Shown: positions 8,419 through 64,000, numbered from the stretch's first letter. The stretch: DNA of 64,000 nucleotides from Candidatus Bathyarchaeia archaeon (GCA_038882975.1 JAVZNE010000001.1:96001-160000); one strand, 5' to 3'. Notes: generated by a model not told the origin, from the letters alone. Made by a program: numbers and translations.

Positions 8419-8521
8419 GAACTTTCCTCGCTAGAATATTATTTGCCCCTGTTTCAAATTGTTGCCAGAATAAGGAGGGCCGATGGGTGTTAAAACTTTT
8501 TCTTGGAGAAATTATAGGGTG

Positions 8522-8953: not shown

Positions 8954-9044
8954 GGCGTGTGCACCTTCTGCTGGTTTATGAAATCTGAAGAATACTTATT
9001 TAACTTGTATGAACCCTCAATGTGGATTTCAAGTAAGTTTTGCA

Positions 9045-11414: not shown

Positions 11415-11415
11415 T

Positions 11416-12759: not shown

Positions 12760-12766
12760 GGTTTAT

Positions 12767-14008: not shown

Positions 14009-14009
14009 T

Positions 14010-14489: not shown

Positions 14490-14504
14490 GTTCAATCCTC
14501 CCTT

Positions 14505-18690: not shown

Positions 18691-18749
18691 GTGTCTTCTC
18701 CTGTACTTATGTTATATATCTATACACTTTGGTTATTAAATATTACGTC

Positions 18750-21900: not shown

Positions 21901-22674
21901 TTGAAGGAGTTTAAGGCTATAGCCCTTGAAGGCTTCCCCCTAATAAAACCCGGAGACAACATAGCTAAGATAATTGTTGAAACTGCAGAGGGAAATGGCT
22001 TAGAAATTGAGGATGGAGACATAATCGTTATTGCTCAAAAAATTTTTTCGAAAGCTGAGGGAAGAATAGTTAACCTCAAAGAAGTTGTCCCATCCGAAAA
22101 GGCCAGGAAAATCGCCAGAAAAACGGGTAAAAGCCCGAAGTTTGTGGAGCTTGTCTTGAGGGAAACAAAGGAGGTCATAAAGGCCTCCAGCGAAATATTA
22201 CTTGTTGAAGATGCCAGAGATATAGTTTGCATAAATGCTGGAATAGACAAGTCAAACATTGAAGGCGAAAGCAACTTTGCACTTCTCCCCGAAGACCCAG
22301 ACGCCTCAGCGGAAAAATGTCGAAAAGAAATAAAAAAGTTGACTGGGAAAAATGTGGCGGTAATAATATGTGATACTTATAGCCGACCTTTCAGGCGTGG
22401 ACAAGTAAACTTTGCCATAGGCTTGGCTGGAATAAAACCTTTCAAAGACTATAGGGGCAAAAGGGACCTCTACGGTTACATGTTGAAAGTTAAGAATGTA
22501 GCCGTTGTCGATGAAATCGCCGCTGCAGCGGAACCCCTCATGGGACAGGGCGAGGAAGCAACGCCTGTGGTGATTTTTAAGGGATTAAGGGGCTTTGTGG
22601 AATTCTGCGAAAAATCAAGCGCAAAGGAGCTGAAAATAGGAAAGGACGAGGACCTGTTTAGAGGGGCTTTGTAA
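21901..22674 (+). CDS. cofE: Coenzyme F420-0:L-glutamate ligase (second paralog)
   Basis: PLIKPGDN, KIFSKAEG, CINAGIDKSN, LLPEDPDASA, DTYSRPFRRG and DEIAAAA motifs. Confidence 0.92.
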   Translation: MKEFKAIALEGFPLIKPGDNIAKIIVETAEGNGLEIEDGDIIVIAQKIFSKAEGRIVNLKEVVPSEKARKIARKTGKSPKFVELVLRETKEVIKASSEILLVEDARDIVCINAGIDKSNIEGESNFALLPEDPDASAEKCRKEIKKLTGKNVAVIICDTYSRPFRRGQVNFAIGLAGIKPFKDYRGKRDLYGYMLKVKNVAVVDEIAAAAEPLMGQGEEATPVVIFKGLRGFVEFCEKSSAKELKIGKDEDLFRGAL

Positions 22675-36183: not shown

Positions 36184-37164
36184 TTATGGGGAAGGTATCC
36201 CAGCAACTTTGGGAAATGGAACAGCGTCCCAGATATTTTCAAGACCGCAGATAAACCTTGTAAGCCTCTCAACACCTATTCCAAAACCCGCTGAGGGGGG
36301 AATGCCAACCATCAACATGTCCAAATACCACCCATAATCAGCGGGATTTTCACCGCTTTTCAGCATCCTCTCCAAAAGCTTGTCATATCGATGCTCTCTT
36401 TTCCCGCCTGAAATTGCCTCGCCGAAACCATCCGGATATAGTAGGTCAAAATCTTCTAAAACGCCATGTTCTTTTTCGCTTTCCATGTAGTAAAAGCTTC
36501 TAGCCGTGGCTGGAAAGTTTGTTATCCAAAAGGGCTCCCCGTGCATCCTTGATATAGCTTCCTCCGCCTCCCACGGAATTTCTTTGCCATACTCCACACT
36601 TATTCCAATACCCTTGAGAATTTCAAGAGCTTCTCTGTATGTGTATCTTTTGAATGGCAATTTTGGCACTTTCAGCATTTTTGCGCGTTCTCCAAGCTCT
36701 TCGCGGCACTTGTTTTTCACATGGGTTATCACGTGGTGGAGCATTCTTTCGCCTAGCTCCATCACATCTTCGCATTTGGCATAAGCAACTTCAAGGTCTA
36801 TTTGCCTAAACTCTGTTAGGTGGCGACGTGTCCCCAAAGTTTCTATAGGTTCTAGTCGTATGTTTGGCGATAATGCGAAAACTTTTGGCAAAGCCGTGAT
36901 AATCATTTGTTTGTATAGTATCATACTGCTCATAACTTTGAAAGGAAAACCATAATAGTCTATAGTGGCTTGCTTTGCCCCTCTAATGCCGGGATCTGTT
37001 GCAGGTCCAATGATGGGCGCCAAAATTTCGATAAAGCCCTCATTTTTTAGGAAAGCCCGGATTGATGATATTATTTCATCTTGAACTTTAAAGACGTTTG
37101 CCAGTCCATTATTTTTTAGTGTTATGTACCTTTTTTTTAGGCTTTCGAAGGGGTCGCTGCTCAT
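36184..37164 (-). CDS. Archaeal asparagine synthetase (AsnRS-like catalytic domain without anticodon domain)
   Basis: TDPGIRG, SMILYKQ, SPNIRLE, RHLTEFRQIDLE, EAISGGKRE and SAGFGIGVERL motifs; 326 aa with no OB domain. Confidence 0.85.
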   Translation of the reverse strand: MSSDPFESLKKRYITLKNNGLANVFKVQDEIISSIRAFLKNEGFIEILAPIIGPATDPGIRGAKQATIDYYGFPFKVMSSMILYKQMIITALPKVFALSPNIRLEPIETLGTRRHLTEFRQIDLEVAYAKCEDVMELGERMLHHVITHVKNKCREELGERAKMLKVPKLPFKRYTYREALEILKGIGISVEYGKEIPWEAEEAISRMHGEPFWITNFPATARSFYYMESEKEHGVLEDFDLLYPDGFGEAISGGKREHRYDKLLERMLKSGENPADYGWYLDMLMVGIPPSAGFGIGVERLTRFICGLENIWDAVPFPKVAGIPSP

Positions 37165-37268: not shown

Positions 37269-37775
37269 ATGAGTCTAAAACTCAACGAAAAAGATTTGGC
37301 AATACTGGACTTGCTGCAGAAAAACTGTAAGATGACAGCGAAGGAAATAGCGAGAAAAATAAACTCGCCCATAACAACGGTTTTTGCAAAAATAAAGAGA
37401 ATGGAACAGCAAGGAATAATTAAAGAGTACAGAGCTATCCTAGACCATAAGAAGCTGGATTTTGGCGTGACAGCCTTCATTTTGGCATCCTTCTCCTATA
37501 GAACCAACAAGGAGGAGGAGACACCACTTTCCCAGCGGGCTATAGCTGAGCAAATATCAAAGTTTCCAGAGGTTCAAGAAGTCCACATAATATCCGGAGA
37601 CTGGGACATCCTCATCAAAGTTAAGGATAAAGATGTGGATTCTGTTGGAAGGTTTGTAATAGATAAACTGAGGACTGTGAAGGGGATAGAGAAAACATTA
37701 ACATGCATGGTGTTTGATACGCCAAAAGAGACAACAACCATACCAATACCATTGAAAGCTCTTAAAAAGCTGTGA
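37269..37775 (+). CDS. Lrp/AsnC family transcriptional regulator
   Basis: D..IL..LQ HTH, IKRMEQQGII and HIISGDWDILIKV (RAM domain). Confidence 0.93.
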   Translation: MSLKLNEKDLAILDLLQKNCKMTAKEIARKINSPITTVFAKIKRMEQQGIIKEYRAILDHKKLDFGVTAFILASFSYRTNKEEETPLSQRAIAEQISKFPEVQEVHIISGDWDILIKVKDKDVDSVGRFVIDKLRTVKGIEKTLTCMVFDTPKETTTIPIPLKALKKL

Positions 37776-43815: not shown

Positions 43816-44196
43816 TTAGTAGGCTAGGCACTCAATCATTCTGCTACAAGTTAAACACTCATCTGGTATTGGCGTATTCTTTGGACGCTTCTTCAAATAA
43901 CCAAGAAAATGTTCACACTTTGCCCCTTCTGATTCGCTTTCCTCTTTTTTGTGTACAATAACTGTGGAGGTTTTTTCCTCTTCTTCCCTGCTTCTTTCAT
44001 GCCTCATGGCTTTTACTTCTCCAACTTTTGTTAGGCAACGCGGACAAGCATAATAGGTTCTGAAAGAACCGCCAGAAACAATTGTTGCCAAAATTGGTTT
44101 TTCAAAGTTTTCACCACAGCCATAACATGTCTGACCATTATACCTTGAAAGATAGTACCCGCCACTATACCTTGCTAATGATATGTTTTCAGACAT
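43816..44196 (-). CDS. Cys-rich double zinc-binding protein
   Basis: CYGC...ACPRC, charged linker, CEHFLGYL...PDECLTC...C. Start trimmed to ATG 44196. Confidence 0.7.
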   Translation of the reverse strand: MSENISLARYSGGYYLSRYNGQTCYGCGENFEKPILATIVSGGSFRTYYACPRCLTKVGEVKAMRHERSREEEEKTSTVIVHKKEESESEGAKCEHFLGYLKKRPKNTPIPDECLTCSRMIECLAY

Positions 44197-44275
44197 ACTT
44201 TGCAACCCATCAGTATGCAGAATATTAATATTTAATAAACCTTTTTGCACAAACGTACAACACAAAAACACATAG

Positions 44276-44350
44276 TGGGCCGGACCGGATTTGAACCGGT
44301 GACCTTCCGCACGTCAAGCGGATGTCCTAACCGAGCTAGACTACCGGCCC
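44276..44350 (-). tRNA. tRNA-Val(GAC)
   Basis: GGGCCGG/CCGGCCC acceptor stem, anticodon arm TCCGC-TTGACGT-GCGGA, GGTTCAAATCC T-arm; no intron, CCA not encoded. Confidence 0.95.
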
Positions 44351-44452
44351 TCTTTTGCCCGGAAATAGTTTACTTGCATTTCCAATATATAGCTGATTCG
44401 TTTTTGGATAAAGATTTAAGATTTAAAAGTGTCTTAGAGGGTGGTGGCTGTT

Positions 44453-44540
44453 GCCGGGATGGCGGAGTGGATAACGCGCAGGCCTTGAGAGCCTGTGGCC
44501 CGTTTGGGCCGCGTGGGTTCGAATCCCACTCCCGGCGCCA
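44453..44540 (+). tRNA. tRNA-Ser(TGA)
   Basis: GCCGGGA/TCCCGGC acceptor stem, CAGGC-CTTGAGA-GCCTG anticodon arm, long variable arm GGCCC-GTTT-GGGCC, G73 and encoded CCA. Confidence 0.95.
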
Positions 44541-44575
44541 AAACTGCCGTTTAAGGCGTTTTAGGGTGATTTATT

Positions 44576-44947
44576 ATGCATTGTTCTGATTGTGGTGAAT
44601 GCTGCCGTGAAACCGAAATGGAACTTTCAAGCGATGACGTAGAGCGTTTGGTGGATGCTGGTTATCGCCCAGAGGATTTTATGGTTGTACGTGATGATGT
44701 GCCACATCTCAGAAATGTTGATGGTTGTTGCTACTTTTACAGCCCAGCTAAAAGGAGGTGTCGAGTTTATAAGATAAGACCTTTGGGATGCCGTCTTTAT
44801 CCAGTTATTTATGTGGACGGTGTAGGCGTGACTTTGGATGAGTTATGTCCTATGAGGCATACAGTTTCCAAGAAAGAGTTTAAGCGGAAAGCGAGAATTC
44901 TCAAGAGGCTTTTGGAAAAGATTTATGGTGAACGTTTGTTCCGCTGA
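44576..44947 (+). CDS. YkgJ-family cysteine-cluster protein
   Basis: CSDCGECC...CYFY...CRVYKIRPLGCRLYP...CP. Confidence 0.88.
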   Translation: MHCSDCGECCRETEMELSSDDVERLVDAGYRPEDFMVVRDDVPHLRNVDGCCYFYSPAKRRCRVYKIRPLGCRLYPVIYVDGVGVTLDELCPMRHTVSKKEFKRKARILKRLLEKIYGERLFR

Positions 44948-44950
44948 TGG

Positions 44951-45364
44951 CTAGGACTGTTTGAAGTCCCATCCAAACAATGCCAAGTCAAAGTCCGTTA
45001 TTAAGCCAACAAGTTTATTTTTAGCGTTTACAACAGGGATTCTCCTAAGATGTCTATTGTTCATTGTTTTGACAACGTCGAGGACAGTGTTATTGGGTTT
45101 ACATGTTACAAGGTCCCTTGTCATTATGTCTTCAACTTTTAGCTTTCTTACATCAGCCTGTGAATAAACAGCCTTTGTAATTATATCCCTGAAGGTTAGC
45201 AAGCCTTGTAAAATACCTTTCGAGTCGATGATGGGTAGGCATTCCACATCGCATTCAATCATCCTTTTCACGGCTTCTTCCACCGTGCTGCCAACGGAAA
45301 CCGTGATTAGGTTTCTTGTCATAATTTTGCTAACTTTCACTTTAAGTGCGGCTAAATCCTTCAT
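44951..45364 (-). CDS. CBS-pair protein
   Basis: Two CBS repeats (VSKIMT...GLLTFRDI; VEDIMT...GLITDFDL). Confidence 0.92.
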   Translation of the reverse strand: MKDLAALKVKVSKIMTRNLITVSVGSTVEEAVKRMIECDVECLPIIDSKGILQGLLTFRDIITKAVYSQADVRKLKVEDIMTRDLVTCKPNNTVLDVVKTMNNRHLRRIPVVNAKNKLVGLITDFDLALFGWDFKQS

Positions 45365-45506: not shown

Positions 45507-47231
45507 CTAGTTTTTCGGTGAAACATCTGCCCAATATTTTTCGAACTGTTCCACGTATTTGTATCCGCTGTCGGGGAAAACAAGAACGTACACGCCTTTT
45601 TCTCCGGCAATTTTCTGGAAAGCGTGCACAATGGCTCCTGAGCTTAGCCCTATTAGGAGACCTTCCTTTCTCGCTATTTTTATTGCGCCTTCTATGGCTT
45701 CTGTCTGTTTCACTTCTACTACTTCGTCGAAATGTGCGTTGTGGAACCATTTCATGCCTGTTTCTATCCGCCTTATGCCGGGAATAACTTCGTTTTGGGC
45801 TGGTTGGACGCCAACAATTTTTACGTTGTGGCCGTATTTGGTTTTGAAGTAGTGGGATATGGCGCTCATATGCCCAGACGTCCCAAGTCCTCCAATTATG
45901 CATGTGGGCTTTAAGCCTAGGCTGTTCAATTGGTCGTCTATTTCTCTGGCTGTGTATTTTAGGTGGACTTTGAAGTTTGCGTCATTCTCGAACTGGTTTA
46001 GGTGGACAGCATTGTCGGCTTTTGCCTCTTTTTCTACGTGGCTTATCGCCTCAACGGTTAAGCCCACTGGAAGCCGCACAACCTCTGCTCCGAGAACTTT
46101 TAGGTAGATGTCGCTTGCCTTCTGTATGGTTTTCGGTATGAAAAGCCTTGTTCTCACGTCGAGCGTATTAGCTATGGATGTTAAGGCTATGCCAGTATTT
46201 GTGGATGTAGCCTCATACAAAGCAGTTTTAAGCTCTCCATTCTCCATAGCTTCTTTAATCATAGCCCAACCTATTCTGTCTTTTACACTGTTGCTGAAAG
46301 GGTTATAACACTCAAGCTTAGCCCAAACGCTGCAGGAGGTAGAGGAAAGGGAATTTAACTTTACAAGTGGGGTTGGCCAACCATCATAAAGCAGTTCTAG
46401 AGTGCTATTGTAAACTTTTAACACTTTGCGGCTTTGCCTCTTTTTAGTCAATAACTTTTCCAGCGGAACATTAATTTTGACCGGTTCTGCGAAAAGGGTG
46501 AAGCTTTTTGGCTGGAGCTTTGGACCCTTAACCCCAGCCTCAATAATTCTCTCCTTAGAAAAGTTTTCCATGTTTGGTGCTTTGATTTCTACATCCTTTA
46601 AGTTCACCGTAAAAGTGGGTGCCTTCTCTGCCGAAAGTAGGTCGAGTGCTTGGAAGGCTTCATAGCCATGCAATAAAACGCCCGTTCTCTTATCAATTAC
46701 TAGGGGGGCATCGATGACTTCTGTTTTAAGGAATTTAGTGTATGTTGATAGTACATCTGCAAGTTCAACATTCATGGCGGCTTTTATGCGTTTTATGGGC
46801 GTAAGTGTAAGTTCGCTTTTCAGCACTTCGATGGGGATGTCAACCTTCTTTTCAATTGACGATATATGCGATAGGGTTTCACTGTTTCTTATCATGTGGC
46901 ATGTTGATTTAGGCGGAAAACGCTTCCCAGATAAGGCTGCTTCTATCACGTCCCTTTTTGTTAAGTTGTAATTATTTCTCCATGTTTGAACCACTATGTT
47001 TGGCGAGTTGTAATCCACGTAGATTACTGGGATTCTTTTGCATCCGAGGCTTTTGAGGACGTTGAAGCGATGTTCGCCATCCAATATTATATTTGTTTTT
47101 TTGTCGACGACTATTGGATGTTTTAGGATTTTGTCTGCAGCTATTTGTCGTGTCAGTTCTTCGAGATGCTCGGGATCTGTCTCTTCGTGTTCGTGGAGCC
47201 TTTCCAGTTTTATTAGGTGTATTTCGGTCAT
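45507..47231 (-). CDS. Fusion: SerK/SbnI-like ParB-Srx domain + degenerate ParB-Srx repeat + PLP cysteine synthase (O-phosphoserine sulfhydrylase-like)
   Basis: N-term LHEHEE...PIVVD...ILDGEHR...FPPKSTCH; repeat with PLVID...LLHGYEA; C-term PTPLV, KLECYNPFSNSVKDR, ATSTNTG, NQFEN, GGLGTSG, IPGIRR and GLSSGA. Confidence 0.85.
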   Translation of the reverse strand: MTEIHLIKLERLHEHEETDPEHLEELTRQIAADKILKHPIVVDKKTNIILDGEHRFNVLKSLGCKRIPVIYVDYNSPNIVVQTWRNNYNLTKRDVIEAALSGKRFPPKSTCHMIRNSETLSHISSIEKKVDIPIEVLKSELTLTPIKRIKAAMNVELADVLSTYTKFLKTEVIDAPLVIDKRTGVLLHGYEAFQALDLLSAEKAPTFTVNLKDVEIKAPNMENFSKERIIEAGVKGPKLQPKSFTLFAEPVKINVPLEKLLTKKRQSRKVLKVYNSTLELLYDGWPTPLVKLNSLSSTSCSVWAKLECYNPFSNSVKDRIGWAMIKEAMENGELKTALYEATSTNTGIALTSIANTLDVRTRLFIPKTIQKASDIYLKVLGAEVVRLPVGLTVEAISHVEKEAKADNAVHLNQFENDANFKVHLKYTAREIDDQLNSLGLKPTCIIGGLGTSGHMSAISHYFKTKYGHNVKIVGVQPAQNEVIPGIRRIETGMKWFHNAHFDEVVEVKQTEAIEGAIKIARKEGLLIGLSSGAIVHAFQKIAGEKGVYVLVFPDSGYKYVEQFEKYWADVSPKN

Positions 47232-47306: not shown

Positions 47307-47702
47307 TTGAAACCACCATGTGTAATCGTAGTGAAATATCTTCTTCCGGCAATAAGAGTGCTGGTAACAAAAGAGCTTATCGAAAAACACAACATGAGAA
47401 AAATAGAGGCTTCTGAAAAGATGGAGCTAACCCCAGCGGCTATAACCCAATATTTTAAAGGTGAAAGAGGAGCAACGCTCACAAACGAAATAGCTCAGTC
47501 CGAAGAGGCCATGAAAATGGTATCAAAGTTGGCTGAAACCCTCGCCAGAAAAGACGCAACACCAGAAAGCGTCATAGAGAAACTCTGCGAAATATGTGCC
47601 ACCATAAGATATGAAGGGGTTATCTGCAAACTTCATCAAGAAGACTTGCCAACCCTCAAAGAATGCAGGTGTGCCACATGCTATTCCTCGCCAGAAACCT
47701 AA
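47307..47702 (+). CDS. HTH transcriptional regulator with Cys-rich C-terminus (COG2522-like)
   Basis: PC.IV...LPAIR, LTPAAITQYFKGERG and CEIC...CKLH...C..C motifs. Confidence 0.82.
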   Translation: MKPPCVIVVKYLLPAIRVLVTKELIEKHNMRKIEASEKMELTPAAITQYFKGERGATLTNEIAQSEEAMKMVSKLAETLARKDATPESVIEKLCEICATIRYEGVICKLHQEDLPTLKECRCATCYSSPET

Positions 47703-48307: not shown

Positions 48308-49510
48308 ATGGTTTTGAAGGCTAAACCGCGATTCGCCGAAACCCTAAAGCAGTCAGTGATGGCTTACGCCTTTAATATTTTTGGGATAGCCGCCGGAACA
48401 ATAATCGCCTATTATTCTGAACTTTTTGCAGAAGCGCCATGGGCGGTTGTAATTTATCCACCAATCCTCAGCGCCCGTGGAGTTATAGGCGGCTTATTTT
48501 GTGGACGCCTAAGTACAGGCCTACACCTTGGAACTATTCAACCACGCCTTTTTAGAAACACTAAAAGTTTCTATCTACTATTCCAAGCAATTGTGATTAT
48601 GACTTTTGAAGCAAGCCTCATGATGAGCCTAATTGCAGCTCTTTTAAACGGCTTTGGAGAATCTTTGCGTTTGATAAACGTTTTTATGGCTACAATGGCT
48701 TTGGCGCTGATTGTTATTTCCCCACTGACGCTGACGGTTTCCTTCATCTCCTTCAAGCATGGACTTGACCCAGACATAATCTTATACCCGATAGAATCAA
48801 CAGTGGCAGACCTCCTCATAACATCAATTTATATTACAGTGCTAGGTCTTTTCCTCACTAACAGTTTTCTTTGGGGTTATGTCTTCACTTTTATAAGTTT
48901 AGCACTGCTGTTAACCTCCGCATTCTTCCTCGTTAAAAATGCGAAGGAGCCAGAATTCATTAAAACTTTAAAAGAATCCCTATTAACACTTGTTTTAGTC
49001 TCTTTTATAGTCAATGTTGCCGGAGCCACCTTAGGCAAGGTGGAAGAACTCATACGCGGGAAAAAGCTTAGCCAAGTCTACGTTGTTTATCCAGCGTTAA
49101 TTGACACTATAGGTGACGTGGGAGCTGTTGTAGGCTCAACAGCCACAACAAAACTTGCCCTTGGAACACTTAAAGCATCATTTTCCTCCATGAAAAGCCA
49201 TTTTATGGAGATTTCAGGCGCGTGGGCAGCATCATTAATAATGTATTTTGCCTATTCAGTCTTAGCCTTACTAATAACTGGCACATTTGCTCCAATAAGC
49301 CTTGCAGCTTTTACGTTTTTCCTTTTCACAGTCAACATTTTCGCCGCTTCCCTAATAATTTTGGTTTCCTATTCCGTTGCCATCCTAACCTATCAAAGAG
49401 GTTTAGACCCTGACAACTTTGAAATTCCAATAGAGAGTTCCCTCGCAGATAGCATAACAACAATTTCGCTTCTTGTGGCACTTGTCTTGTGGGCTGGAAT
49501 ATTAGCTTAA
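48308..49510 (+). CDS. MgtE-type divalent cation transporter membrane protein (internally duplicated)
   Basis: Two repeats: GRLSTGLHLG...GLDPD and TTKLALG...GLDPDN. Confidence 0.88.
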   Translation: MVLKAKPRFAETLKQSVMAYAFNIFGIAAGTIIAYYSELFAEAPWAVVIYPPILSARGVIGGLFCGRLSTGLHLGTIQPRLFRNTKSFYLLFQAIVIMTFEASLMMSLIAALLNGFGESLRLINVFMATMALALIVISPLTLTVSFISFKHGLDPDIILYPIESTVADLLITSIYITVLGLFLTNSFLWGYVFTFISLALLLTSAFFLVKNAKEPEFIKTLKESLLTLVLVSFIVNVAGATLGKVEELIRGKKLSQVYVVYPALIDTIGDVGAVVGSTATTKLALGTLKASFSSMKSHFMEISGAWAASLIMYFAYSVLALLITGTFAPISLAAFTFFLFTVNIFAASLIILVSYSVAILTYQRGLDPDNFEIPIESSLADSITTISLLVALVLWAGILA

Positions 49511-49589
49511 ACATGCTCCAAAATAGCCTTTGGGATAAGAGTTAAAATATTTAGCTGCTAAATATTGTGGTCGGAGAGCCCAAAGCGCT

Positions 49590-50198
49590 ATGCCTCCCTT
49601 TGAAAAAATCGAGTATAAGCCCGTGACAGTGAGGGAAGTTCTCCGTGAAATGAAAAACCTCTCTGAACTAATGATTGACTTGGCTTATTCTGCTGCTCTC
49701 TTCAATGACAAAGACTTGGCTGAAGACGTTTTGGAACTGGAAAAACGCATAGACACGCTGGCTTACCATCTGGAAATGGTGACCATGGTGGCTGCAAGAG
49801 ACGCAAAAGACGCAGAAGCACTTGTCGGAGTTTCAAAAGTGGCTGCCGCTGCAGACAAAATTTCAGACGCCGCCGCAGACATAGCGGCGATAGTAACCCA
49901 AAATATAGGCGTGCACCCCATCGTGGGTGAAATTTTTGAAAGAGTTGAAGAACGTTTAGCAAAAGCCAAAGTGCACGAAGAATCGGTTTTAGTTGGAAAG
50001 GAGATAGGCGAGCTTGAACTAGCCCCTAGAATGGGAATAGACATAATCGCCATATTCAGAGAAAACGACTGGATAATAAACCCAAAAGAAAACGAGAAGG
50101 TTAAAGCTGGTGACATCCTCATAGCCCGCGGCACCCACGAAGGATTAAGAGAGCTTAAAGAAATCTGCGAAGGAAAACTTGACAAACTGGAGGACTAA
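49590..50198 (+). CDS. PhoU-like + TrkA_C (RCK_C) domain protein
   Basis: MKNLSELMIDLAYSA...ISDAA helical bundle plus C-terminal RCK_C. Confidence 0.85.
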   Translation: MPPFEKIEYKPVTVREVLREMKNLSELMIDLAYSAALFNDKDLAEDVLELEKRIDTLAYHLEMVTMVAARDAKDAEALVGVSKVAAAADKISDAAADIAAIVTQNIGVHPIVGEIFERVEERLAKAKVHEESVLVGKEIGELELAPRMGIDIIAIFRENDWIINPKENEKVKAGDILIARGTHEGLRELKEICEGKLDKLED

Positions 50199-50200
50199 TC

Positions 50201-50779
50201 ATGGCAGGGAAAAGCCAGAAGAAATTTGAGGAAATCGTCGCACGCTTTGTAGAGCTTAAAGACACATCCGAACTAATGATTGACCTGGCTTATTCATCGC
50301 TTCTTCTAAACAGCAAGGAGCTAGCCGAAGAAGTACAAAAACTCGAAGAATATGTGGACAAGCTACACACAGAATTTGAGCTACTAGTCTTGTCCAGCAA
50401 ATTCAAAAAAGAGGAAGCTAAAGGCTTTTTAGGGCTGATAAGGCTTGGCGTCGTCACAGAGAAGATAGCCGACGCGGCTGCACAAATAGCCGAGGTTGTT
50501 TTAAGAGGCATAGAACCCCACCCAGTGCTGGCACTAGCCATAGAAGAAGCTGAAGAGACAATAACATACGCGAAGGTAGCGGAAAACTCGCCCTTAGTAA
50601 ATAAGACTTTGCGAGAGGCTAAAATCCCAGAGGAAACAGGCATGTGGGTTCTAGCCATAAAGAGGGGAGACAAATGCATACGTCCAAAGCCAGAAACCCG
50701 AATCCAGGTGGGCGATATTCTAATTGCTTCGGGCTATGCTGAAGGCGAAGAGGATCTCAAAAAACTTGCAGTTCCATAA
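50201..50779 (+). CDS. PhoU-like + TrkA_C (RCK_C) domain protein (paralog)
   Basis: LKDTSELMIDLAYSS...IADAA and ETGMWVLAIKRG...GDILIASG. Confidence 0.85.
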   Translation: MAGKSQKKFEEIVARFVELKDTSELMIDLAYSSLLLNSKELAEEVQKLEEYVDKLHTEFELLVLSSKFKKEEAKGFLGLIRLGVVTEKIADAAAQIAEVVLRGIEPHPVLALAIEEAEETITYAKVAENSPLVNKTLREAKIPEETGMWVLAIKRGDKCIRPKPETRIQVGDILIASGYAEGEEDLKKLAVP

Positions 50780-52155: not shown

Positions 52156-53412
52156 TTAAGTTGTGCCCATCTCCCATTCCGTCAAATACTTTTTCTGCTC
52201 CTCTGTCAGCTCATCTATTTTTACGCCGATTGCCTCAAGTTTAAGCCTCGCTACAGCTTCGTCTATTTCCCTCGGAACTGGATACACTTTAGGCCGCATC
52301 CTCTCGCCTTTAACAAGGTATTCGACGCTTAAGGCTTGATTTGCAAAGGACATATCCATAACTTCGGACGGATGTCCCTCAGCAGCCGCCAGGTTTACAA
52401 GTCTCCCTTCGGCTAGCAAATAAAGCCTCCTACCATCTTTTAACACGTATTCGCCAAGGTTTGGTCTAACAGCCCTTTTCGAGGCTGCCAGTTCTTCAAG
52501 GTCTTTTAGGCTTATTTCAACGTTGAAGTGGCCACTGTTGGCGAGGATGGCCCCATCCCGCATCTTCTCCATATGCTCTTTCCTAATGACGTTTATGTCG
52601 CCAGTTGTTGTTAGGAAAATGTCACCTATCTTGGCTGCCTCGCTTATGGGCATTACTCGGAAACCATCCATGACAGCTTCAAGAGCCCTTAAGGGGTTTA
52701 CTTCCGTCACTACGACGTTAGCGCCCATCCCTCTTGCCCGCATTGCTACACCTCTGCCACACCAACCATAGCCACAGACAACAAAGTTTTTACCAGCCAA
52801 GAGAATGTTTGTCGCTCTTAAAATGCCGTCTATTGTGCTTTGCCCAGTTCCATAACGGTTGTCGAACAAATATTTTGTGTAGGCGTCGTTAACCGCTATT
52901 ATCGCGTATTTTAGGGTTCCAGACCTTTCCATGGCCCTAAGCCTCAAAACGCCTGTTGTTGTCTCTTCAGTGCCTCCTTTAACATTTGGTAATGCGTCTG
53001 TTCTTTTGCTGTGGATTGTGCTTACTAAGTCTGCCCCGTCGTCCAATGTTATTAGGGGTTTTTGGTCTATGACCCTTTCAATGCACCAGTAGTATTCGTC
53101 TGTTGTTTGACCACGCCACGCGTAAACGTGAACACCCTTCTCCGCTAGTGCTGCCGCAACCTCATCTTGTGTTGAAAGCGGGTTAGAGCCGCAAAGAGCA
53201 ACTTTCGCGCCTCCAGCTAGGAAAACGTCAACCAGCACTGCTGTCTCCTTTGTTACGTGTAAGCATGCGCCGAGCACAACGCCTTTTAAGGGTTTTTCCT
53301 CGCTGAACCTTTTCCTAATCTGGTTTAGAACAGGCATGTGTCTTGAAGCCCATTCTATTTGCAGAACTCCTTTCGGTGCTAGGCTTTCATCCTTAACTTT
53401 AAAGTTTGCCAT
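52156..53412 (-). CDS. ahcY: S-adenosylhomocysteine hydrolase
   Basis: [46 protein letters not shown] and AEGHP motifs. Confidence 0.96.
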
Positions 53413-53447
53413 TAAATCGCCTTCCGCTATGCCATTTCCACCAACAA

Positions 53448-54803
53448 TTATTTAACGTTGCGCCTAAGCCTTTCCAAAAGGCTATTTTTGGCTTTCTCCA
53501 CCATTTCCATAACCTTCTCAATATTTAATGTTGTTAGGCGTCTGTTTTCCATCACTATTTTTCCGTTTATTATGACGGTTTCAACATCCGCCGATTTTGC
53601 AGTATAAACAAGATGGCTAAACTCATTATAGAGTGGGCATAGATGCGGCTTATCAAAGTTTATGATGGCTAAATCAGCCTTTTTCCCCACTTCTATTGAG
53701 CCTATCTCATTCTCCCAGCAAAGAGCCCTAGCCCCATCCAAAGTTGCCATTTTCAAAACTTGCTGGGCAGACATTACTGTCGGATTTCCGCTTACCCCTT
53801 TATGGAGTATGGCTGCCACCTTCATAACCTCAAACATGTCCGCAGCATTATTGGAACATGGACTGTCTGTGCCAAGCGAGACCGTTACGCCTTGTTCCAG
53901 CATTTTTGGAACGGGACTTATGCCTGAAGCAAGCTTAAGATTTGAAATTGGGTTGTGGGAGACCTTAACGCCTCTGGCTTTCATTAACGCCATATCATCG
54001 TTCGTTAGTGCCACACAGTGCGCTGCGATAACACGCTCGTCTAAAACGCCCAAAGAGTCCAAATACTCCATTATGCCGCCTTTAACATCAACATTGAAGG
54101 CTTTCCGTATCTTGTCAGCCTCGTCAAATGTTTCTGCCACATGAATGTGCCACATAATTGGCGCCTTTTCAGAACCATACTTCCCATCGAGTTCCTCGCG
54201 TAAAGCCTTCAGCTCCTTCATATATTCTGGGTCAACGGTGTAAGGCGCGTGGGGGTCAACACTTACGCGGATAAGCCCCCCAGCCTTATTATGCCAGTTT
54301 TTGGCTAAGTCTTCCAACGCTCTTCTATCCTCATCCTTCCTCCATGAAAAGCAAACATGCCCAACAACGCCTCTGACACCAGCATCTACAAAAGCTTTCG
54401 CCTCATTCTCCCCTGGCATGTAATGGTACATCGTGTTAACGGTTGTTGTACCGCCCATTATGGATTCTACAGCCGTCAGCAAGCTGCCAACATAAATGTC
54501 TTCAGCGGTCATCAACGCTTCTATGGGCCATATCCATTTTTCAAGCCACTCTTGAAGGGGTAAATCGTCGGCATAACCCCTCAAAAGGCTCATGGCTGCA
54601 TGTTGGTGAGTGTTTATAAGCCCTGGAATCACAACCTTTCCTTTGGCGTTTATCTTCTCATAGCCAATTGCATATTTACGAAGTATCGGCTCAGTTTTCC
54701 CAACATCAACTATTGTCCCGTTTTCTATAGCTATGGCACCGTCGCGAATTATTTCATCCCTTCGCATCGTGACTACGGTTCCGCTGTGGATTAGAATGTT
54801 CAA
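53448..54803 (-). CDS. mtaD: 5'-methylthioadenosine/S-adenosylhomocysteine (5'-deoxyadenosine) deaminase
   Basis: [39 protein letters not shown] and LGTD motifs. Start trimmed to TTG 54803. Confidence 0.88.
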
Positions 54804-54805
54804 TT

Positions 54806-55000
54806 TTAGTATCCCCTCCGCCTTTTTGAACATGCAACTATTAGGAGGGTTATGCCAGCCGTGAAAAATATTGCCTCAAAAAACTCGTGATGAAGCATGT
54901 CAGCCAAGTCGAAAGGTCTCTGCCAGAAAATGATATGATGAATGATTAGCAAGAGCCCAACGGCGATTAAAAATGCACCTATGGCTTCTGTTTTATCCAT
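54806..55000 (-). CDS. Small two-TM protein
   Basis: Hydrophobic 64-aa ORF with HHEFFE motif, directly upstream of mtaD. Confidence 0.55.
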   Translation of the reverse strand: MDKTEAIGAFLIAVGLLLIIHHIIFWQRPFDLADMLHHEFFEAIFFTAGITLLIVACSKRRRGY

Positions 55001-58902: not shown

Positions 58903-60045
58903 TTAATTTACATAACTTCTCTTTACATTTTCCAGAACTTCTTTAAATATTTTTGCAGACGTATCCCAAGAAAATCTTGTCGCGTGCTCAAACGCATTCG
59001 CTGAAAGTTGTCTCCTCAATTCCGTATCTGCAATTATCCTTCGCATATTTTCCGCTAAAGCTCTTATATCACCAAATTTGTATTTTAATCCATTATACCC
59101 ATTTTTAACAACATCCTCTGGCACACCCTCGGTAGCAATTACTGGAGTGCCAAGCATATTTGCCTCAACAGACACTATGCTGAACCCTTCTACTGGAGAG
59201 GTCACAATTAATGCGATAGCACTCGATAGTAATTGCACCTTTTCTTCTTCACTTATGTCCAATCTTATAGAAACATGGTCTTGAAGCTTATAGTCTGCAA
59301 TTAATTTCTGTAGTTCTGCATAATATCTGTCCTCGCCTCTGCGACCAGCTATAATCAGAAAACAAGTTTCATCGTCATCCCTCAATTTTTTTAATGCCTC
59401 TATAGCGTGATGATAGGCCTTGTACTTTCTAATCTTTCCCAAAACCAGAAAGTATGGTTCTTTCCCTCTTGCAAATTCGCTTCGCACATTTTTTGAAGGT
59501 ACAGAAGTGACGGTGTTGGCCGCGGCTGGAACTATGTGGACTTTATATATCGGAAATCCAACTTCCAAAAACTCCTTCGCTCTTTCTCGCGAAGGAACAA
59601 TAATATTATGCTTTTTACGGGTTAGAGAAACATAGACTTTTTCTAGTAATAGGAGCGCTAGTGCTATTGGATAGGGAAACTGGTTAAAATAAATTAATTT
59701 TCCAAGTTGGTGCCACATTATAACAATAGGTTCTTTAACGTAAAGAAAGGCAAAGAATGGCCCAGCAGGTCCTTCCGCCTCCTCAATAACCACATCATAC
59801 CGCCCTATAAGTGACTTATAGTAGAACAAAAAATTTGAGAGTATTCTAAAGATTCCGCCACGTATTCTAATAATTTGTATGCCATGAAGTTTTTCATAAT
59901 TTTTACATCCTGAATATCTGCTACACAACATTGTCACTTTGTGTCCGCTTTGAGCTAGCCTTTTCGCTATTTCGAAATGATATACATCGCCACCTGCCCA
60001 CTTTGGGTGTGTAATATCTCTGCTTGTCATAAACAGTATTTTCAT
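58903..60045 (-). CDS. Glycosyltransferase family 4
   Basis: HPKWAGG, LGKIRKYK, EGFSIVSVEA and FSWD motifs. Confidence 0.9.
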   Translation of the reverse strand: MKILFMTSRDITHPKWAGGDVYHFEIAKRLAQSGHKVTMLCSRYSGCKNYEKLHGIQIIRIRGGIFRILSNFLFYYKSLIGRYDVVIEEAEGPAGPFFAFLYVKEPIVIMWHQLGKLIYFNQFPYPIALALLLLEKVYVSLTRKKHNIIVPSRERAKEFLEVGFPIYKVHIVPAAANTVTSVPSKNVRSEFARGKEPYFLVLGKIRKYKAYHHAIEALKKLRDDDETCFLIIAGRRGEDRYYAELQKLIADYKLQDHVSIRLDISEEEKVQLLSSAIALIVTSPVEGFSIVSVEANMLGTPVIATEGVPEDVVKNGYNGLKYKFGDIRALAENMRRIIADTELRRQLSANAFEHATRFSWDTSAKIFKEVLENVKRSYVN

Positions 60046-60334
60046 AGCTTCAAACCATTCACGACTAATGCTAATAATGTTTTAAATTTAAGTCTAACCT
60101 TTTTTCTTTCCCAAAAACCTCAACAATATCCCAAAAACACCACTATAAATCTCAATCTGTCGAAACAATCAATACACTAACCACAAACTAACGAAAATCA
60201 AAGTTTAAGAAGGCTTATGCAGTTAAAGCTTGCCTTGTGTCAAGAGCTAAAACCCATAACCTATTACTTTCAAGGATCTATGTTGATTTTTACGTTATTA
60301 TGCTATCTAAAACAAAAGCTAGCATTGGCCTATT

Positions 60335-62932
60335 TTATATCGGTATTTTCATTGCAGAATTACTGCATTTTGTGCATAAAGGGAAATTACTAAATTTTTG
60401 TAACCATAGTTTAATGGTTAATATAAGGATTATAAGTAGTAGCACCGAATAAAGTGCTCCAATTAAAGCGCTCATGATGTTTGACAAATAGGGGTCGCCA
60501 AAAGCAACCCTTTCCGCTCCACTTATAAATCGTAAATAATTCCTCCAGAACGCTACGTATATAAAGCCTGTGGCAATGCTTATAACTGCAAATGTCACTA
60601 AAAAATACTTTTCGTTTGAAAAAAGGTAAGCCATTAACAGAAGCCCAGCGATCCATATTACAAACTGATCAAATATTGTTGGAAAGGTCAATTGGAATAT
60701 GGCAACGGTACATAACATAAAAGTTCCAGTTATCATTTTTTCATGTAAACCTGCTAAATTCGCCTTGTTTACTCGATATAAGAAGATTGCAATTAAAATC
60801 AAAAAAGCAATTAATGTTCCACAAGGATAGAAAAATGGATGCAATTCATATCCCAATATTTCTAGCATAAACCTGAGAGTTAAGCCGTATCCCACAGAGG
60901 ATGGTATGATTGAACCGTATAAATAAAAGTTAAATTGTTTTCCATAAAAGGCTTCGCCGGGAATCCCTGATAAAAATCTTTCAAAGGACGTAATAAATAT
61001 TGGTGATTTCGGCTCAAAGACAAACGGCACTATCAAAATACAAAAGATACCCACAGCCAGCAGCAACGTTTTAAAAGCTGGAAAGAATCCATCACTTTTC
61101 TTTATTTTTGCCAAAAGAGGAACAAAGGTTGCGGCTCCCACAGGGTTGATTATTGCACAGAAACCTGAAAATATGCCTGCTTTAACTTTATCATACTTAA
61201 CAATCAAGTAATATGTGCTGAGAATAATTGTGAACACAAATATTGTGTCAAATTGACCTAGTATCGCAGAAATATAAATCGTTAATGGGTTAAGCATGTA
61301 TATGCTCAACAGTAAAGCTTGTTCTTTTGGCACATGTTTTTGCGATATTTTTTGTAAGTACAAGACTATTCCTAGATCGGCTAAGATGGATGGAATTTTA
61401 ACGAAAAATGATTCTAATGTATACGCGGAAGAAGCTAAGAATTGAAAATCTTGAAAGCCTGCTGCTCTTAAAAGGGCATATGGGAGGTAAGCGGCAATTT
61501 GTATGTAGACAAATCCAGGTAAACTGACCCATTGCGCTCCCAGTATGCCCGATCCATAATATAAAGCGCCTAATTGTGCAAATATTTGAAGATCGTATGG
61601 ATATGCGGTTATAGGTGCGAGAACCAGTCGGAAAGCTAAACCTGTAATCAAAATTCTAGTTATAGTCGTTTTATCGTTATTTAGTATGCCTTTTCTGTGC
61701 ATGAAAAATAAGGCTATAAGCAGGAATGTGGGAAGTATTCCAGCCATCATCAAAATGAATAATGTCGCTGCTAGAAGAACTTCTTCGCTTAAAGTGGGTA
61801 AAGTACATTCGTCGAATTGAATTTTAGAAAAAGTAAACTCAACTTTATGAAGTGTAACGCTTTTTATTTCGCTTCCATTAACAGGGACAAAAATTATTCC
61901 ATAATCCCCTTCTTCCATCAAGTAATGGAGCCCGTTTATCGGATCAAAATTTAAATCGAGAAACTTTAACTTCTTCCAGTCAATATATGTGCCTATTTGA
62001 TTTGAACGGCTTGTGTGGATGAAAAGGAAATCACTTCGTGAAGCAACCAATCCGTCTTTCTTTTTGTAAACTAAAAACACTGTGTATAATGCGTTTTTTG
62101 ACGCGTTAATTGAATATTTTACGTAGGCTCTTTGAAGATATGGATAGTTAACAATAGACCGTCTAAAATCGTCATTTTCCTTAATGACATAAGCTGCCGT
62201 CCCTTCCGAAAGGCAATAAGCTTTAACTTTCTGACTTAGATAATAAGGCAATTCTCTCATTACGCTTAACGAAGCTAGTCTAAACAAACAGCGACCTTCG
62301 ATTTCCGGTTTCAAAATGCCAAGAATTTTCACTTTAATTTCGATGGCGGAGAAGTTTTTATCAGCCAGTGCGCACTTTAAAAGCATCTCTTTTATATTAA
62401 GTGTTACTGAATGATTTATATGATCGTCAAAGCCCATGTCAACTTTGGATGAACAATTTACCCAAACATATTTATCATCAATCACAATATTGTGAGCTGG
62501 TTGCAATTCGTTTTCAAATATTGCATAGTTATTTAAAGTTCCTACCAATAGGTCGATTGATACGTCAGGGCTGCTGGAGATCAAGGCGTGGAGATAGGGA
62601 AATCTAGAAAAATTTAAGGAAAGTCCTTCTAAGGTAGCATTAAAGATATACCGCCTTGAATAATTAATAGGACAATCGATTAGCAGGGTTCCGTCAATGA
62701 TGTGACATTTTGCATCTTTCGGTTCAACATTCAATTGAGAGAGATTTATTGAAATAGCCTTGCTTAATGAAATTATGGTATTATTAACCATTAATGAGAA
62801 GATTCGTGTATCTTCGGCATCGATAAGTGTTGCAGTTTGATTTGCGAGTTTACCCTTACAGTATATTATGCAAACTCCATAAACTAATAAAGTAAGCAAC
62901 ATTGTCATGACACGTCGCTTCATAAACACCAC
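60335..62932 (-). CDS. Large membrane protein: extracellular domain + GT-C-type glycosyltransferase
   Basis: C-half RLVLAP...YPYD, KIPSILAD and NPLTIYISAILGQFD match the two GT-C genes at 28.2-30.9 kb. Confidence 0.72.
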   Translation of the reverse strand: MVFMKRRVMTMLLTLLVYGVCIIYCKGKLANQTATLIDAEDTRIFSLMVNNTIISLSKAISINLSQLNVEPKDAKCHIIDGTLLIDCPINYSRRYIFNATLEGLSLNFSRFPYLHALISSSPDVSIDLLVGTLNNYAIFENELQPAHNIVIDDKYVWVNCSSKVDMGFDDHINHSVTLNIKEMLLKCALADKNFSAIEIKVKILGILKPEIEGRCLFRLASLSVMRELPYYLSQKVKAYCLSEGTAAYVIKENDDFRRSIVNYPYLQRAYVKYSINASKNALYTVFLVYKKKDGLVASRSDFLFIHTSRSNQIGTYIDWKKLKFLDLNFDPINGLHYLMEEGDYGIIFVPVNGSEIKSVTLHKVEFTFSKIQFDECTLPTLSEEVLLAATLFILMMAGILPTFLLIALFFMHRKGILNNDKTTITRILITGLAFRLVLAPITAYPYDLQIFAQLGALYYGSGILGAQWVSLPGFVYIQIAAYLPYALLRAAGFQDFQFLASSAYTLESFFVKIPSILADLGIVLYLQKISQKHVPKEQALLLSIYMLNPLTIYISAILGQFDTIFVFTIILSTYYLIVKYDKVKAGIFSGFCAIINPVGAATFVPLLAKIKKSDGFFPAFKTLLLAVGIFCILIVPFVFEPKSPIFITSFERFLSGIPGEAFYGKQFNFYLYGSIIPSSVGYGLTLRFMLEILGYELHPFFYPCGTLIAFLILIAIFLYRVNKANLAGLHEKMITGTFMLCTVAIFQLTFPTIFDQFVIWIAGLLLMAYLFSNEKYFLVTFAVISIATGFIYVAFWRNYLRFISGAERVAFGDPYLSNIMSALIGALYSVLLLIILILTIKLWLQKFSNFPLCTKCSNSAMKIPI

Positions 62933-63943
62933 ATAGCATTTAACCTGTACCTTTCAAAAATGTAAAAATTTAAGCATTTCGTACAGTAGCAGCTTAACCT
63001 TCGGTGAAGATAAATGATTATACAACCTATACATAAACTGTTAGCTGTCACAATTATGCTGGTTAAAAAGTCTAGAGATTTAAAAATTCCAAGCAACACT
63101 GTAAGTTTATATAGTACAGCGACATGATAAACGTAGAAAAATAACGCGTGCCTTCCCATAAACTCGAAAATCTGGGGCCCTATCCACTTACCAAATTTTG
63201 CAACTACCAAGAAAATAAGTGAGACCATTGAAAGGCTTAACAGGACAAAGCTTGTAGCCCCCTCAAAATACGAGATTTTAGGCGAGATAGTCAAAGTAAA
63301 AAGTAAGGCTGATACAAAAGTTGAAAGGCTAAAGCTTAAAATGGTCTTAGAATCCCGAGCGAGAATTTTATTAGCGAGAAACATTCCCGCCGAAAAATAT
63401 GGAAGCATCAGCAAATCGTGAATCCATAGAAAAAGGGACGGATAATCATGCCAACACAATAATTTGATACGTATTCTCGAAGAAGGAAGGAAACACTCCA
63501 AACACCTATCATGAACCAAAAGGTGTGCCTATAAAAATCAAAAGTAAAGTTAAGGATATCATTGCATAGAGCCCGATAGCCCCGATAACCTCCCTAAATT
63601 CTAAAAATAAAGTTATGTCAGCTACCCATATACAGATTATTAAGCTAAGAAAAATATAGGCGCCATACCTTCTAAATCCATATATTCATATTTTAAGTTT
63701 TGAATAACTACGTTCGAGTCTCTTTTTAAATGATAAATATAAGCTGACTCCAGAAACGGTCATAAAAATAGGCAACCAGTTAAAAAAATCAAAACCAAAA
63801 CCAAATGCATACCAATCTCTATTACTTAAGCCGTAGAGAATGAAATCTTTGCTAAAGAAGTCCCATGTTTGAAACCAAATCATCCAAAGAACAGCAATAC
63901 CCAGTACAATGTCAATGTCTCTAACACGTTTAGAACTCTTAAT
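62920..63943 (-). pseudogene. Disrupted membrane acyltransferase (HGSNAT/DUF1624-like)
   Basis: KRVRDIDIVLGIAVLWM...PIFMTVSGVS, then in-frame TGA at 63686-63688 with the frame continuing (IYGFRRYG...), a frameshift near 63520 and probably another near 63410. C-terminus has MGRHALFFYVYH. Confidence 0.7.
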
Positions 63944-64000
63944 ATTCGTTCCTCCTAATATCCTTTCATTTTAATTTTGATGAGCTCGATAAGGCTTACA

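Follow-up and report, generated by a model that had tools for sequence, protein, structure and literature searches.

A 64,000-nt stretch of the genome of a Candidatus Bathyarchaeia archaeon (GCA_038882975.1, JAVZNE010000001.1:96001-160000; hereafter the window) carries a gene that joins two copies of a ParB/Srx-fold domain, rep1 and rep2, to a pyridoxal 5'-phosphate (PLP)-dependent domain of the O-phosphoserine sulfhydrylase (OPSS) type. On balance, this fusion is probably a bifunctional enzyme, predicted to convert serine to O-phospho-L-serine (Sep) and Sep to cysteine within one polypeptide. The prediction is built on computed domain identities, residue conservation, purifying selection, a series of related architectures and a tree; that the kinase acts on serine is inferred, as are the donors of phosphate and sulfur and any channelling. 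The list of open reading frames (ORFs) and the translation gave a 574-aa ORF, from ATG to TAG, that spans exactly the extent reported in a preliminary description of this DNA, which had not named the strand. The gene is divided as follows.

45507..47231, minus strand: whole gene, rep1-rep2-OPSS fusion, 574 aa, with the stop codon TAG at 45507-45509
46818..47231, minus strand: rep1, aa 1-138, an intact one-domain ParB/Srx module and candidate serine kinase
46446..46817, minus strand: rep2, aa 139-262, a decayed copy of a rep1-type module
46416..46445, minus strand: basic linker, aa 263-272; the AlphaFold2 mean predicted local distance difference test (pLDDT) score at residues 261-270 is 57, the lowest of the model
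45510..46415, minus strand: PLP domain, aa 273-574, an OPSS-type cysteine synthase by prediction

The AlphaFold2 model of the whole fusion had a mean pLDDT of 86.7 and a predicted template-modelling score (pTM) of 0.86, which indicates no more than a defined packing of the domains. Pfam placed PALP at aa 283-553 (E = 6e-49) and ParB_N at aa 3-78 with 25.4 bits, slightly below the cut-off of 26.3, for which reason the database name is merely "PLP-dependent enzyme". The motifs quoted in the preliminary description (H15-E16-E17, D51-G52-E53-H54-R55, F105-PPKSTCH-112, HGYEA at 188-192 and YNPFSNSVKDR at 309-319) were all found in the translation, and its domain assignments agreed with Pfam and NCBIfam profiles, the PDB sequence search and Foldseek. 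The fusion protein had 86 homologous clusters, its full-length relatives were 62-89% identical to it in an alignment of 51 sequences, and those relatives that carry a name are Bathyarchaeia. Five proteins (P0083-P0087) were rejected as true shorter or split architectures, since they start mid-repeat or end right after rep2; four of the five lie on short contigs of 3.6-3.9 kb, and P0084 on a 25.5-kb contig.

The closest characterised relatives of rep1 are the free-serine kinases SerK and SbnI, ahead of DNA-binding ParB, nuclease ParB and sulfiredoxin. NCBIfam searches with rep1 (aa 3-87) gave E-values of 1.2e-16 for SerK and 2.7e-14 for SbnI, against 1.2e-6 for parB_part, and the generic ParB and Noc models were much weaker than SerK and SbnI. 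The PDB sequence search returned SbnI at 3e-10 and SerK at 1e-8, compared with 0.06 for a ParB nuclease. The predicted structure of the N-terminal 263 aa (pLDDT 94.9, pTM 0.89) matched SerK at 2.4e-9 and SbnI at 3.8e-8 in Foldseek, with Noc and ParB at ~5e-4 over ~110 columns and sulfiredoxin at 6e-3 or worse. A grouping of the N-domain with DNA-binding or nuclease ParB proteins, which the preliminary description had set against its own proposal, was thus not observed by profiles, PDB search or Foldseek. Neither a helix-turn-helix DNA-binding domain nor a C-terminal dimerisation domain was matched by Pfam or NCBIfam after the rep1 core, which is followed by a short PK..H tail and then by rep2. 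Three groups of residues stand out in rep1.

47184..47189, minus strand: His15-Glu16; Glu16 pairs with Glu30 of Thermococcus kodakarensis SerK (query residue 6 = SerK residue 20)
47067..47081, minus strand: D51-G52-E53-H54-R55, the nucleotide-binding P-motif (GxxR) of the ParB-type fold
46896..46916, minus strand: P106-P107-K108-S109-T110-C111-H112, a tail motif common to the SerK C-terminal motif (weak local alignment, SerK residues 204-228)

Conservation was assessed in the 51 rep1-rep2-OPSS fusions (alignment A1) and in 41 sequences that include 32 standalone one-domain proteins (alignment A2). His15 and Glu16 were unchanged in 51/51 fusions and in 41/41 sequences of A2; in SerK, the E30A and E30Q mutants served to trap phosphoserine complexes, according to PDB titles. 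D51, G52, H54 and R55, in a motif with which SerK aligns, were likewise unchanged in all 51 fusions, as was H112, and K108 was kept in 49 of them. The GxxR arginine is required for nucleoside triphosphate (NTP) binding in ParB-fold proteins (PMC12704722). The median dN/dS over 21 pairs (the window plus six complete loci) was 0.095 for rep1, 0.075 for the PLP domain and 0.121 for rep2, so rep1 is maintained under strong purifying selection, about as strong as that on the PLP domain.

Judged by its profile matches, rep1 nevertheless falls outside SerK/SbnI as that family is delimited, and is a member of a large family, so far uncharacterised, whose proteins measure ~140 aa. The assignment of rep1 to the SerK/SbnI type in the preliminary description therefore stood as regards closest characterised relatives and failed as regards strict membership, because an inserted domain is absent and the scores fall far below the cut-offs; rep1 may still work like SerK and SbnI. 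All 1.84 billion representatives were searched by phmmer, with aa 1-270 as the query, which gave 1682 matches at E<=1e-3 and 734 at E<=1e-10. Among the matches listed from P0088 on, 109/148 were 120-180 aa in length. Short relatives aligned end to end with aa 3-137 at 32-47% identity (32 in alignment A2), and standalone members that are likely from Bathyarchaeia were up to 69% identical to rep1. These proteins and rep1 have the HE, DG(H/E)HR, PPKT..H and HIS motifs in common and carry no insert, and the invariant residues of A2 are H15, E16, D51, G52 and K92. Standalone one-domain proteins occur in Bathyarchaeota, Thermoproteota, Thermoplasmatota, Micrarchaeota and some Bacteria, under the source names "ParB N-terminal domain-containing" or "hypothetical", and Pfam found no family on any of the four short ones tried.

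A hidden Markov model (HMM) of the one-domain family matched rep1 in one piece (model positions 7-144, E = 1.2e-64). SerK/SbnI-like proteins split the same model into positions ~6-90, a gap of ~100 residues and positions ~93-121 (13/13 two-piece matches), and it is from these two-piece matches that SerK-type kinases can be described as a one-domain module with an inserted domain. The relatives that split the model in this way are ~250-290 aa long and matched the NCBIfam SerK model over its whole length. The possibility that rep1 and rep2 together make up the two-domain SerK fold was rejected, HHalign finding the SerK-type insert unrelated to rep2 (0.2% probability) or rep1 (3.5%); in the end-to-end Foldseek alignment of the N-terminal module to SerK and SbnI, the root-mean-square deviation was 10-23 Å and the TM-score 0.29-0.38. 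One-domain modules were also found fused to a sugar-phosphate-type nucleotidyltransferase (P0193), to a glycerol-3-phosphate-cytidylyltransferase-like domain (P0194) and to a D-2-hydroxyacid dehydrogenase, the last in what may be a truncated or chimeric ORF, and such partners suggest a family of small-molecule kinases. Two full one-domain modules, set apart by long unassigned spacers, are present in P0100, P0108, P0113, P0117 and P0146 (333-649 aa), showing that tandem modules are not peculiar to OPSS fusions.

Sequence and predicted structure clearly assign the PLP domain to the Aeropyrum OPSS type and not to the O-acetylserine sulfhydrylase (OASS) type. Its best PDB sequence match was Aeropyrum pernix OPSS (ApOPSS; 1wkv, E = 1.7e-60), compared with 2e-34 for the best OASS. 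In Foldseek, OPSS entries were on top with E-values of ~3e-28 to ~1e-28 and TM(target) of 0.81-0.85, OASS reached ~2e-21, and Mycobacterium tuberculosis CysM was a much weaker match than ApOPSS (~4e-20 vs 3e-28). The preliminary description had already assigned this domain to the OPSS type and had ascribed the YNPFS-x-SVKDR form to the A. pernix enzyme, and the alignment places that form in the ApOPSS chain. Two positions link the domain to ApOPSS in particular.

46281..46283, minus strand: Lys317, predicted PLP Schiff-base lysine, opposite ApOPSS Lys127 in the alignment
45771..45773, minus strand: Arg487, opposite ApOPSS Arg297, predicted phosphoserine phosphate recognition (GIRRIETGM opposite GIRRVETGM)

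The site of ApOPSS Lys127 is identified by the PDB title "K127A mutant ... external Schiff base", and Arg297 takes part in Sep recognition (Makino et al., PMC5120207). Lys317, the TS.NT loop, Gln413, Arg487 and Arg488 were invariant in 142/142 members of the clade compared. The NCBIfam cysteine-synthase models all fell below their cut-offs (the best, cysKM, at 188 vs 344 bits), and the SbnA (4e-35) and cysteate-synthase models matched too.

With the PLP domain as the sole query, 677 proteins were matched at E<=1e-40. Architectures were mapped from the best 120 of these, with HMMs of rep1, rep2 and the PLP domain placed on 118 proteins (115 new ones plus P0001, P0075 and P0084) and fragments left unclassified. 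Together with alignment A1, four classes were recognised.

rep1-rep2-OPSS, ~574 aa, 51 proteins (alignment A1): the class of the window's protein
rep2-OPSS, ~433-481 aa, 63 proteins: sources include Methanomethylicia, Thaumarchaeota/Nitrososphaerota, Aigarchaeota, Fervidicoccaceae and Bathyarchaeia
ThiS/MoaD-rep2-OPSS, 533-545 aa, 11 proteins: Pfam ThiS at E = 1e-11 to 1e-15 on the four tried
ApOPSS-length forms, 389-400 aa, 17 proteins: three resemble truncated rep2 forms and were omitted from alignment A5

As judged from this mapping, a ThiS/MoaD module replaces rep1 in sister Bathyarchaeia enzymes (P0260, P0262, P0268, P0274, P0275, P0279, P0280, P0286, P0287, P0290 and P0295). Because ThiS and rep1 alternate there, the N-terminal slot seems to hold substrate-delivering modules. 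OPSS has two substrates, Sep and a sulfur donor, and each alternative module plausibly supplies one of them. The C-terminal Gly-Gly of the ThiS module is kept in 10/11 fusions, where it is internal and followed by Ser and a linker, and it would need cleavage for a thiocarboxylate carrier role like that of mycobacterial CysO-CysM; the ThiS fusions suggest a Sep-dependent cysteine synthase that has its own sulfur carrier built in and cleavable.

A midpoint-rooted tree of the PLP domain (FastTree, LG+gamma; 142 sequences, 298 columns) placed 14 short forms outside and the rep2-OPSS forms as deep grades. All 51 rep1 forms fell into one clade of 72 together with the 11 ThiS forms and 10 rep2-only forms, which are possibly truncated calls. 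Within it, 33 rep1 forms belonged to a clade of 34 (support 0.98), and the other 18 rep1 forms shared a clade of 38 with the 11 ThiS forms (support 0.97), the latter as two groups nested among rep1. The one-domain module family joined OPSS twice, once as the ancestor of rep2 and once as rep1.

The kinship of rep1 and rep2 is real and far above chance. BLASTP of aa 1-135 against aa 136-270 gave E = 2e-11 (31% identity over 75 aa), the one-domain HMM matched rep2 at E = 7.6e-14, and HHalign aligned rep2 with rep1 over 124 columns (99.5% probability, E = 7e-23). The region is predicted to fold well (pLDDT >90), and its decay is most visible in one motif.

46656..46670, minus strand: H188-G189-Y190-E191-A192, degenerate counterpart of DGEHR in rep2

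Position 192 is A, V or T in the 51 fusions and never Arg, and V, L, I, A or T in the other architecture classes; His-Glu and the GxxR arginine are absent from rep2 in all four classes. The preliminary description had treated rep2 as a dead, decayed repeat. The loss of catalytic residues held; a duplication private to this protein did not, since rep2-OPSS occurs without rep1 in 63 relatives, and rep2 also stands behind the ThiS module in 11. On this distribution, the archaeal OPSS clade as a whole has rep2 as its ancestral N-terminal domain, and rep2 is probably structural or a docking surface. Met153 of rep2 is invariant in 51/51 rep1-bearing proteins and is V, F or E elsewhere, which hints at an adapted rep1-rep2 interface.

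The N-terminal domain of ApOPSS (1wkv residues ~11-82) is likely a truncated, decayed ParB/Srx (SerK-like) module and the counterpart of rep2. A profile of 14 short-class proteins matched ApOPSS with E = 2.4e-90, in an alignment that starts at residue 43 and an envelope that starts at 11. In HHalign, the N-domain of the short class matched rep1 with 97.4% probability (E = 1e-11, 80 columns) and rep2 with 97.1%, and that of the 440-aa class matched rep2 with 100% and rep1 with 99.5% (E = 3e-23). Individually, 11/14 short-class proteins matched the rep HMMs at E-values of 6e-5 to 7e-9. The full model aligned over 417-444 columns to ApOPSS in Foldseek, compared with ~300 to OASS. A direct significant match between rep2 and the ApOPSS N-domain was found neither by phmmer nor among the displayed Foldseek matches of the N-module, and the mixed profile A4 reached only ApOPSS residue 66, with no direct N-domain match; the link obtained was a transitive one, through the short-class profile combined with HHalign. 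More tentatively, the archaeal OPSS clade might be regarded as a modular "cysteine synthase platform", in which the N-domain, including that of A. pernix, would be a fossil serine-kinase-like docking surface, the front slot would take either a live kinase module for Sep or a ThiS carrier for sulfur, and the ~140-aa insert-less module would stand for a large family, hitherto overlooked in both archaea and bacteria, of minimal kinases for small molecules. Some standalone modules may also dock in trans on the widespread rep2-OPSS enzymes.

In the route proposed for the fusion, rep1 would bind ATP or ADP and phosphorylate free L-serine to Sep. Glu16 would act as the base, and the D51/H54/R55 P-motif together with the K108/H112 tail would hold the nucleotide and phosphate. 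The PLP domain would then take up Sep through Lys317 and Arg487, eliminate phosphate and yield L-cysteine by adding sulfur, the donor being sulfide or possibly a carrier thiocarboxylate. Rep2, without catalytic residues, would hold rep1 against the sulfhydrylase as a structural bridge. Besides the domain kinships and conserved residues, this route is favoured by the precedents of SerK with CysK and SbnI with SbnA, by the ThiS swap, by the two separate joinings of the module family to OPSS and by the partners found in other fusions of the one-domain module.

Rep1 could instead be a nucleotide-sensing regulator that responds to ATP, ADP or CTP and tunes OPSS allosterically, much as CBS domains tune cystathionine beta-synthase, with Sep arriving from the SerA/SerC route. 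We consider this unlikely. Use of ParB-fold domains as scaffolds or as switches that bind NTPs is indeed widespread, CTP was bound by a SerK-like protein from archaea (PMC12704722), rep1 has no SerK/SbnI insert, and rep2 itself shows that the fold can persist on OPSS without catalytic residues. However, a sensor would need just the GxxR P-motif, whereas Glu16 (SerK Glu30) and His15 are invariant in both the fusions and the standalone family; enzymes rather than switches are the nearest relatives of rep1; and the equivalent slot of the sister enzymes carries a substrate carrier, ThiS, and no sensor.

It is similarly improbable that rep1 is a kinase or ATP-dependent activating enzyme for another hydroxy compound, or for a sulfur-donor step parallel to that of ThiS. 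The idea draws on the P0193 and P0194 fusions, which imply non-serine substrates in parts of the one-domain family, on the swapping of rep1 and ThiS at one position, and on structural matches (E ~6e-3) to sulfiredoxin, another protein of the ParB/Srx fold, which uses ATP on a sulfur oxyacid. Those matches are far weaker than the ones to SerK and SbnI. At the position of the catalytic cysteine of sulfiredoxin, within the nucleotide-binding signature motif, rep1 has Glu53, and Glu stands there in 49/51 fusions. With a partner whose defining substrate is O-phosphoserine, serine is the simplest kinase substrate. Least probable is a route in which rep1 makes Sep and the PLP domain carries out another beta-replacement, with a thiocarboxylate donor (as CysM), to S-sulfocysteine or with an amino-acid nucleophile (as SbnA): the sub-threshold NCBIfam cysteine-synthase scores, the SbnA and cysteate-synthase matches and the Gly-Gly of the sister ThiS modules, which recalls the CysO-CysM thiocarboxylate route, would suit it, but A. 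pernix OPSS, a sulfide-using cysteine synthase, is the best match by a wide margin, and a ThiS module is absent from both the fusion protein and the window.

Several observations weigh against the bifunctional Ser-to-Sep-to-Cys enzyme preferred here. Rep1 scored 60.6 bits against the NCBIfam equivalog cut-off of 380 for SerK (NF053625) and 53.1 against 350 for SbnI (NF033589), and it covers only model positions 15-101 of SerK and 7-92 of 254 of SbnI. It is without the ~100-residue domain that all 13/13 SerK/SbnI-like proteins checked carry before the PPK..H helix. Nucleotide binding by rep1 without kinase chemistry is conceivable, and the nucleotidyltransferase fusions imply that some one-domain members act on compounds other than serine. 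No serine or cysteine pathway genes were found near the fusion or elsewhere in the window, and synteny is informative only among close relatives. The clade of 72 that holds all rep1 and ThiS forms has a support of only 0.60. Finally, Cys111 stands where SerK has Arg and where most of the fusion family (42/51) has Lys or Arg. The preliminary description had pointed to this difference, and the alignment with T. kodakarensis SerK does show Arg opposite Cys111. Position 111 is K in 29 fusions, R in 13, C in seven, Y in one and Q in one; within the window's own subclade (the window and six complete loci), six have Cys and one has Tyr. Cys111 is a subclade variant at a tolerant position, in a module that is maintained.

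The bifunctional route resembles known systems to different extents. In T. kodakarensis, SerK (TK0378) provides Sep for an OPSS-type CysK (TK1687), the same two chemical steps as those proposed for the fusion (PMC5120207). SerK and rep1 are alike in the ParB/Srx core, the His-Glu pair (Glu30 = Glu16), DGxHR and the PK..H tail, and the PLP partner likewise has a basic residue at the Arg297 position. The fusion differs in having both steps in one polypeptide, with a decayed copy between kinase and synthase, and in lacking the ~100-residue inserted domain of SerK, in line with its bit score far under the SerK cut-off. According to PMC5120207, clear homologues of SerK are restricted to Thermococcales and some Desulfurococcales, and Bathyarchaeia, the host of the fusion, lies outside that range.

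The staphyloferrin B pair SbnI/SbnA of Staphylococcus is comparable in that SbnI, a serine kinase with the ParB fold, provides Sep for SbnA, a PLP enzyme of the CysK family and fold. SbnI is the best PDB sequence match of rep1, and the aligned Glu and the Asp of DG.HR, presumably catalytic in SbnI, are conserved. In contrast to rep1, SbnI has two domains, exists as a protein of its own and binds DNA and acts in regulation (as its NCBIfam name states), and the product of SbnA is a diaminopropionate precursor and not cysteine. A. pernix OPSS (1wkv, 3vsc, 6l0p; "Protein CysO") shares with the fusion the Lys127/Lys317 and Arg297/Arg487 pairs, YNPFS.SVKDR and GIRR.ETGM. It has an extra N-terminal domain, likely the counterpart of rep2, but it is 389 aa long, with a short N-domain and no intact kinase-like module. 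CysO-CysM of M. tuberculosis, a Sep-using cysteine synthase with a ThiS-like carrier, is closer to the sister ThiS fusions; the window's protein is without ThiS, and the Gly-Gly of the archaeal ThiS modules is internal. The uncharacterised one-domain ParB/Srx proteins (~120-180 aa) count rep1 among their full-length members, and they differ from it in standing alone.

The chemistry follows a route already known, on which the placing of both steps in one polypeptide, the kinase-like module without an insert and the swap of modules are new variations. A fusion of a ParB/SerK-like domain with a cysteine synthase was not found described in the full-text literature searched, which lacks most subscription journals, in agreement with the preliminary description, which knew of no characterised fusion; nor did that literature describe the archaeal ThiS variant or a ParB-like origin of the OPSS N-domain. 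The available parts of PMC5120207, PMC12704722, PMC13759103 and PMC5424206 make no mention of the fusion, the ThiS variant or the N-domain origin, and the available portions of the main text and supplement files of PMC12704722 mention neither PALP, cysteine synthase nor Bathyarchaeia.

The conversion of Ser to Sep to Cys has so far been documented with separate enzymes in Thermococcales and Desulfurococcales. Bathyarchaeia are abundant sediment archaea that ferment amino acids, and to our knowledge cysteine routes are unassigned in many archaea. If the bifunctional prediction is true, the route extends to this major uncultured lineage, an annotation rule is gained for proteins now named just "PLP-dependent enzyme", and the ~140-aa family becomes the smallest known SerK-type kinase. 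The fusion offers a Rosetta-stone clue to the function of the large ~140-aa ParB/Srx family and suggests an origin for the hitherto unexplained OPSS N-terminal domain, and the kinase/ThiS swap amounts to a natural experiment on the recruitment of substrate-delivery modules by a PLP enzyme. A compact Ser-to-Sep-to-Cys or Sep-generating module could possibly be used in enzyme cascades for non-canonical amino acids.

A TATA-like A/T-rich element was read in the sequence ~40 nt upstream of the fusion gene. Across a 75-bp spacer lies a divergent 131-aa ORF (47307-47702, plus strand) with a weak HTH_3 match (E = 1.5e-4), kept in 10/10 close loci, which may encode a local regulator. A standalone CBS-pair gene (44951-45364, minus strand) follows 142 bp downstream on the same strand; it was present in 3/7 related loci reaching that far and is probably not a dedicated partner of the fusion. 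The upstream block, made up of the HTH-like ORF, an MgtE-like transporter, two PhoU/TrkA-C proteins, AhcY and a deaminase, was rejected as pathway evidence, being common only to close relatives (74-87% identity) and functionally unrelated. In that block, the MgtE-like divalent-cation transporter is followed by two paralogous PhoU + TrkA-C proteins (48308-50779, plus strand), an arrangement kept in 10/10 related loci. Adenosylhomocysteinase adjoins an amidohydrolase of the MTA/SAH-deaminase type (TRZ/ATZ) at 52156-54833 (minus strand), a methyl-cycle salvage pair a few kb from the fusion. No sulfur-carrier genes were detected elsewhere in the window.

Other parts of the window hold further genes. 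Those for coenzyme F420 comprise two paralogous CofE (F420-0:gamma-glutamyl ligase) and CofD, at 2072-2830 (minus), 4426-5352 (plus) and 21901-22674 (plus). A type IV pilus/archaellum-like cluster (7597-21719, minus) contains a prepilin peptidase, a T2SSE-type ATPase, a T2SSF-type membrane protein and several ORFs without a family, as well as surface proteins of 789 and 989 aa with F5/8 type C, PKD, Big_1 and beta-helix domains. A 258-aa ORF (5417-6193, plus) joins a HepT-like (HEPN) ribonuclease to a Pol-beta-type nucleotidyltransferase, resembling a fused HEPN-MNT toxin-antitoxin pair. A 326-aa protein with a class II aminoacyl-tRNA synthetase core (tRNA-synt_2; 36184-37164, minus) adjoins an Lrp/AsnC regulator (37269-37775, plus); its size suggests that an anticodon-binding domain is missing, and it may be an AsnA-type asparagine synthetase. 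Genes for tRNA-Val(GAC) (44275-44350, minus) and tRNA-Ser(TGA) (44453-44540, plus) are abutted or overlapped by the mechanically called ORFs 43816-44271 and 44245-44589, of which at least the latter is probably no gene. The GC content falls to 0.35 at 60001-64000 (window mean ~0.43), where ORFs of 865 and 199 aa have no Pfam family. The window is archaeal by its gene content, which includes genes for L15e, L13e, RNase P protein subunits, DGGGPL reductase, PCNA and the primase large subunit.

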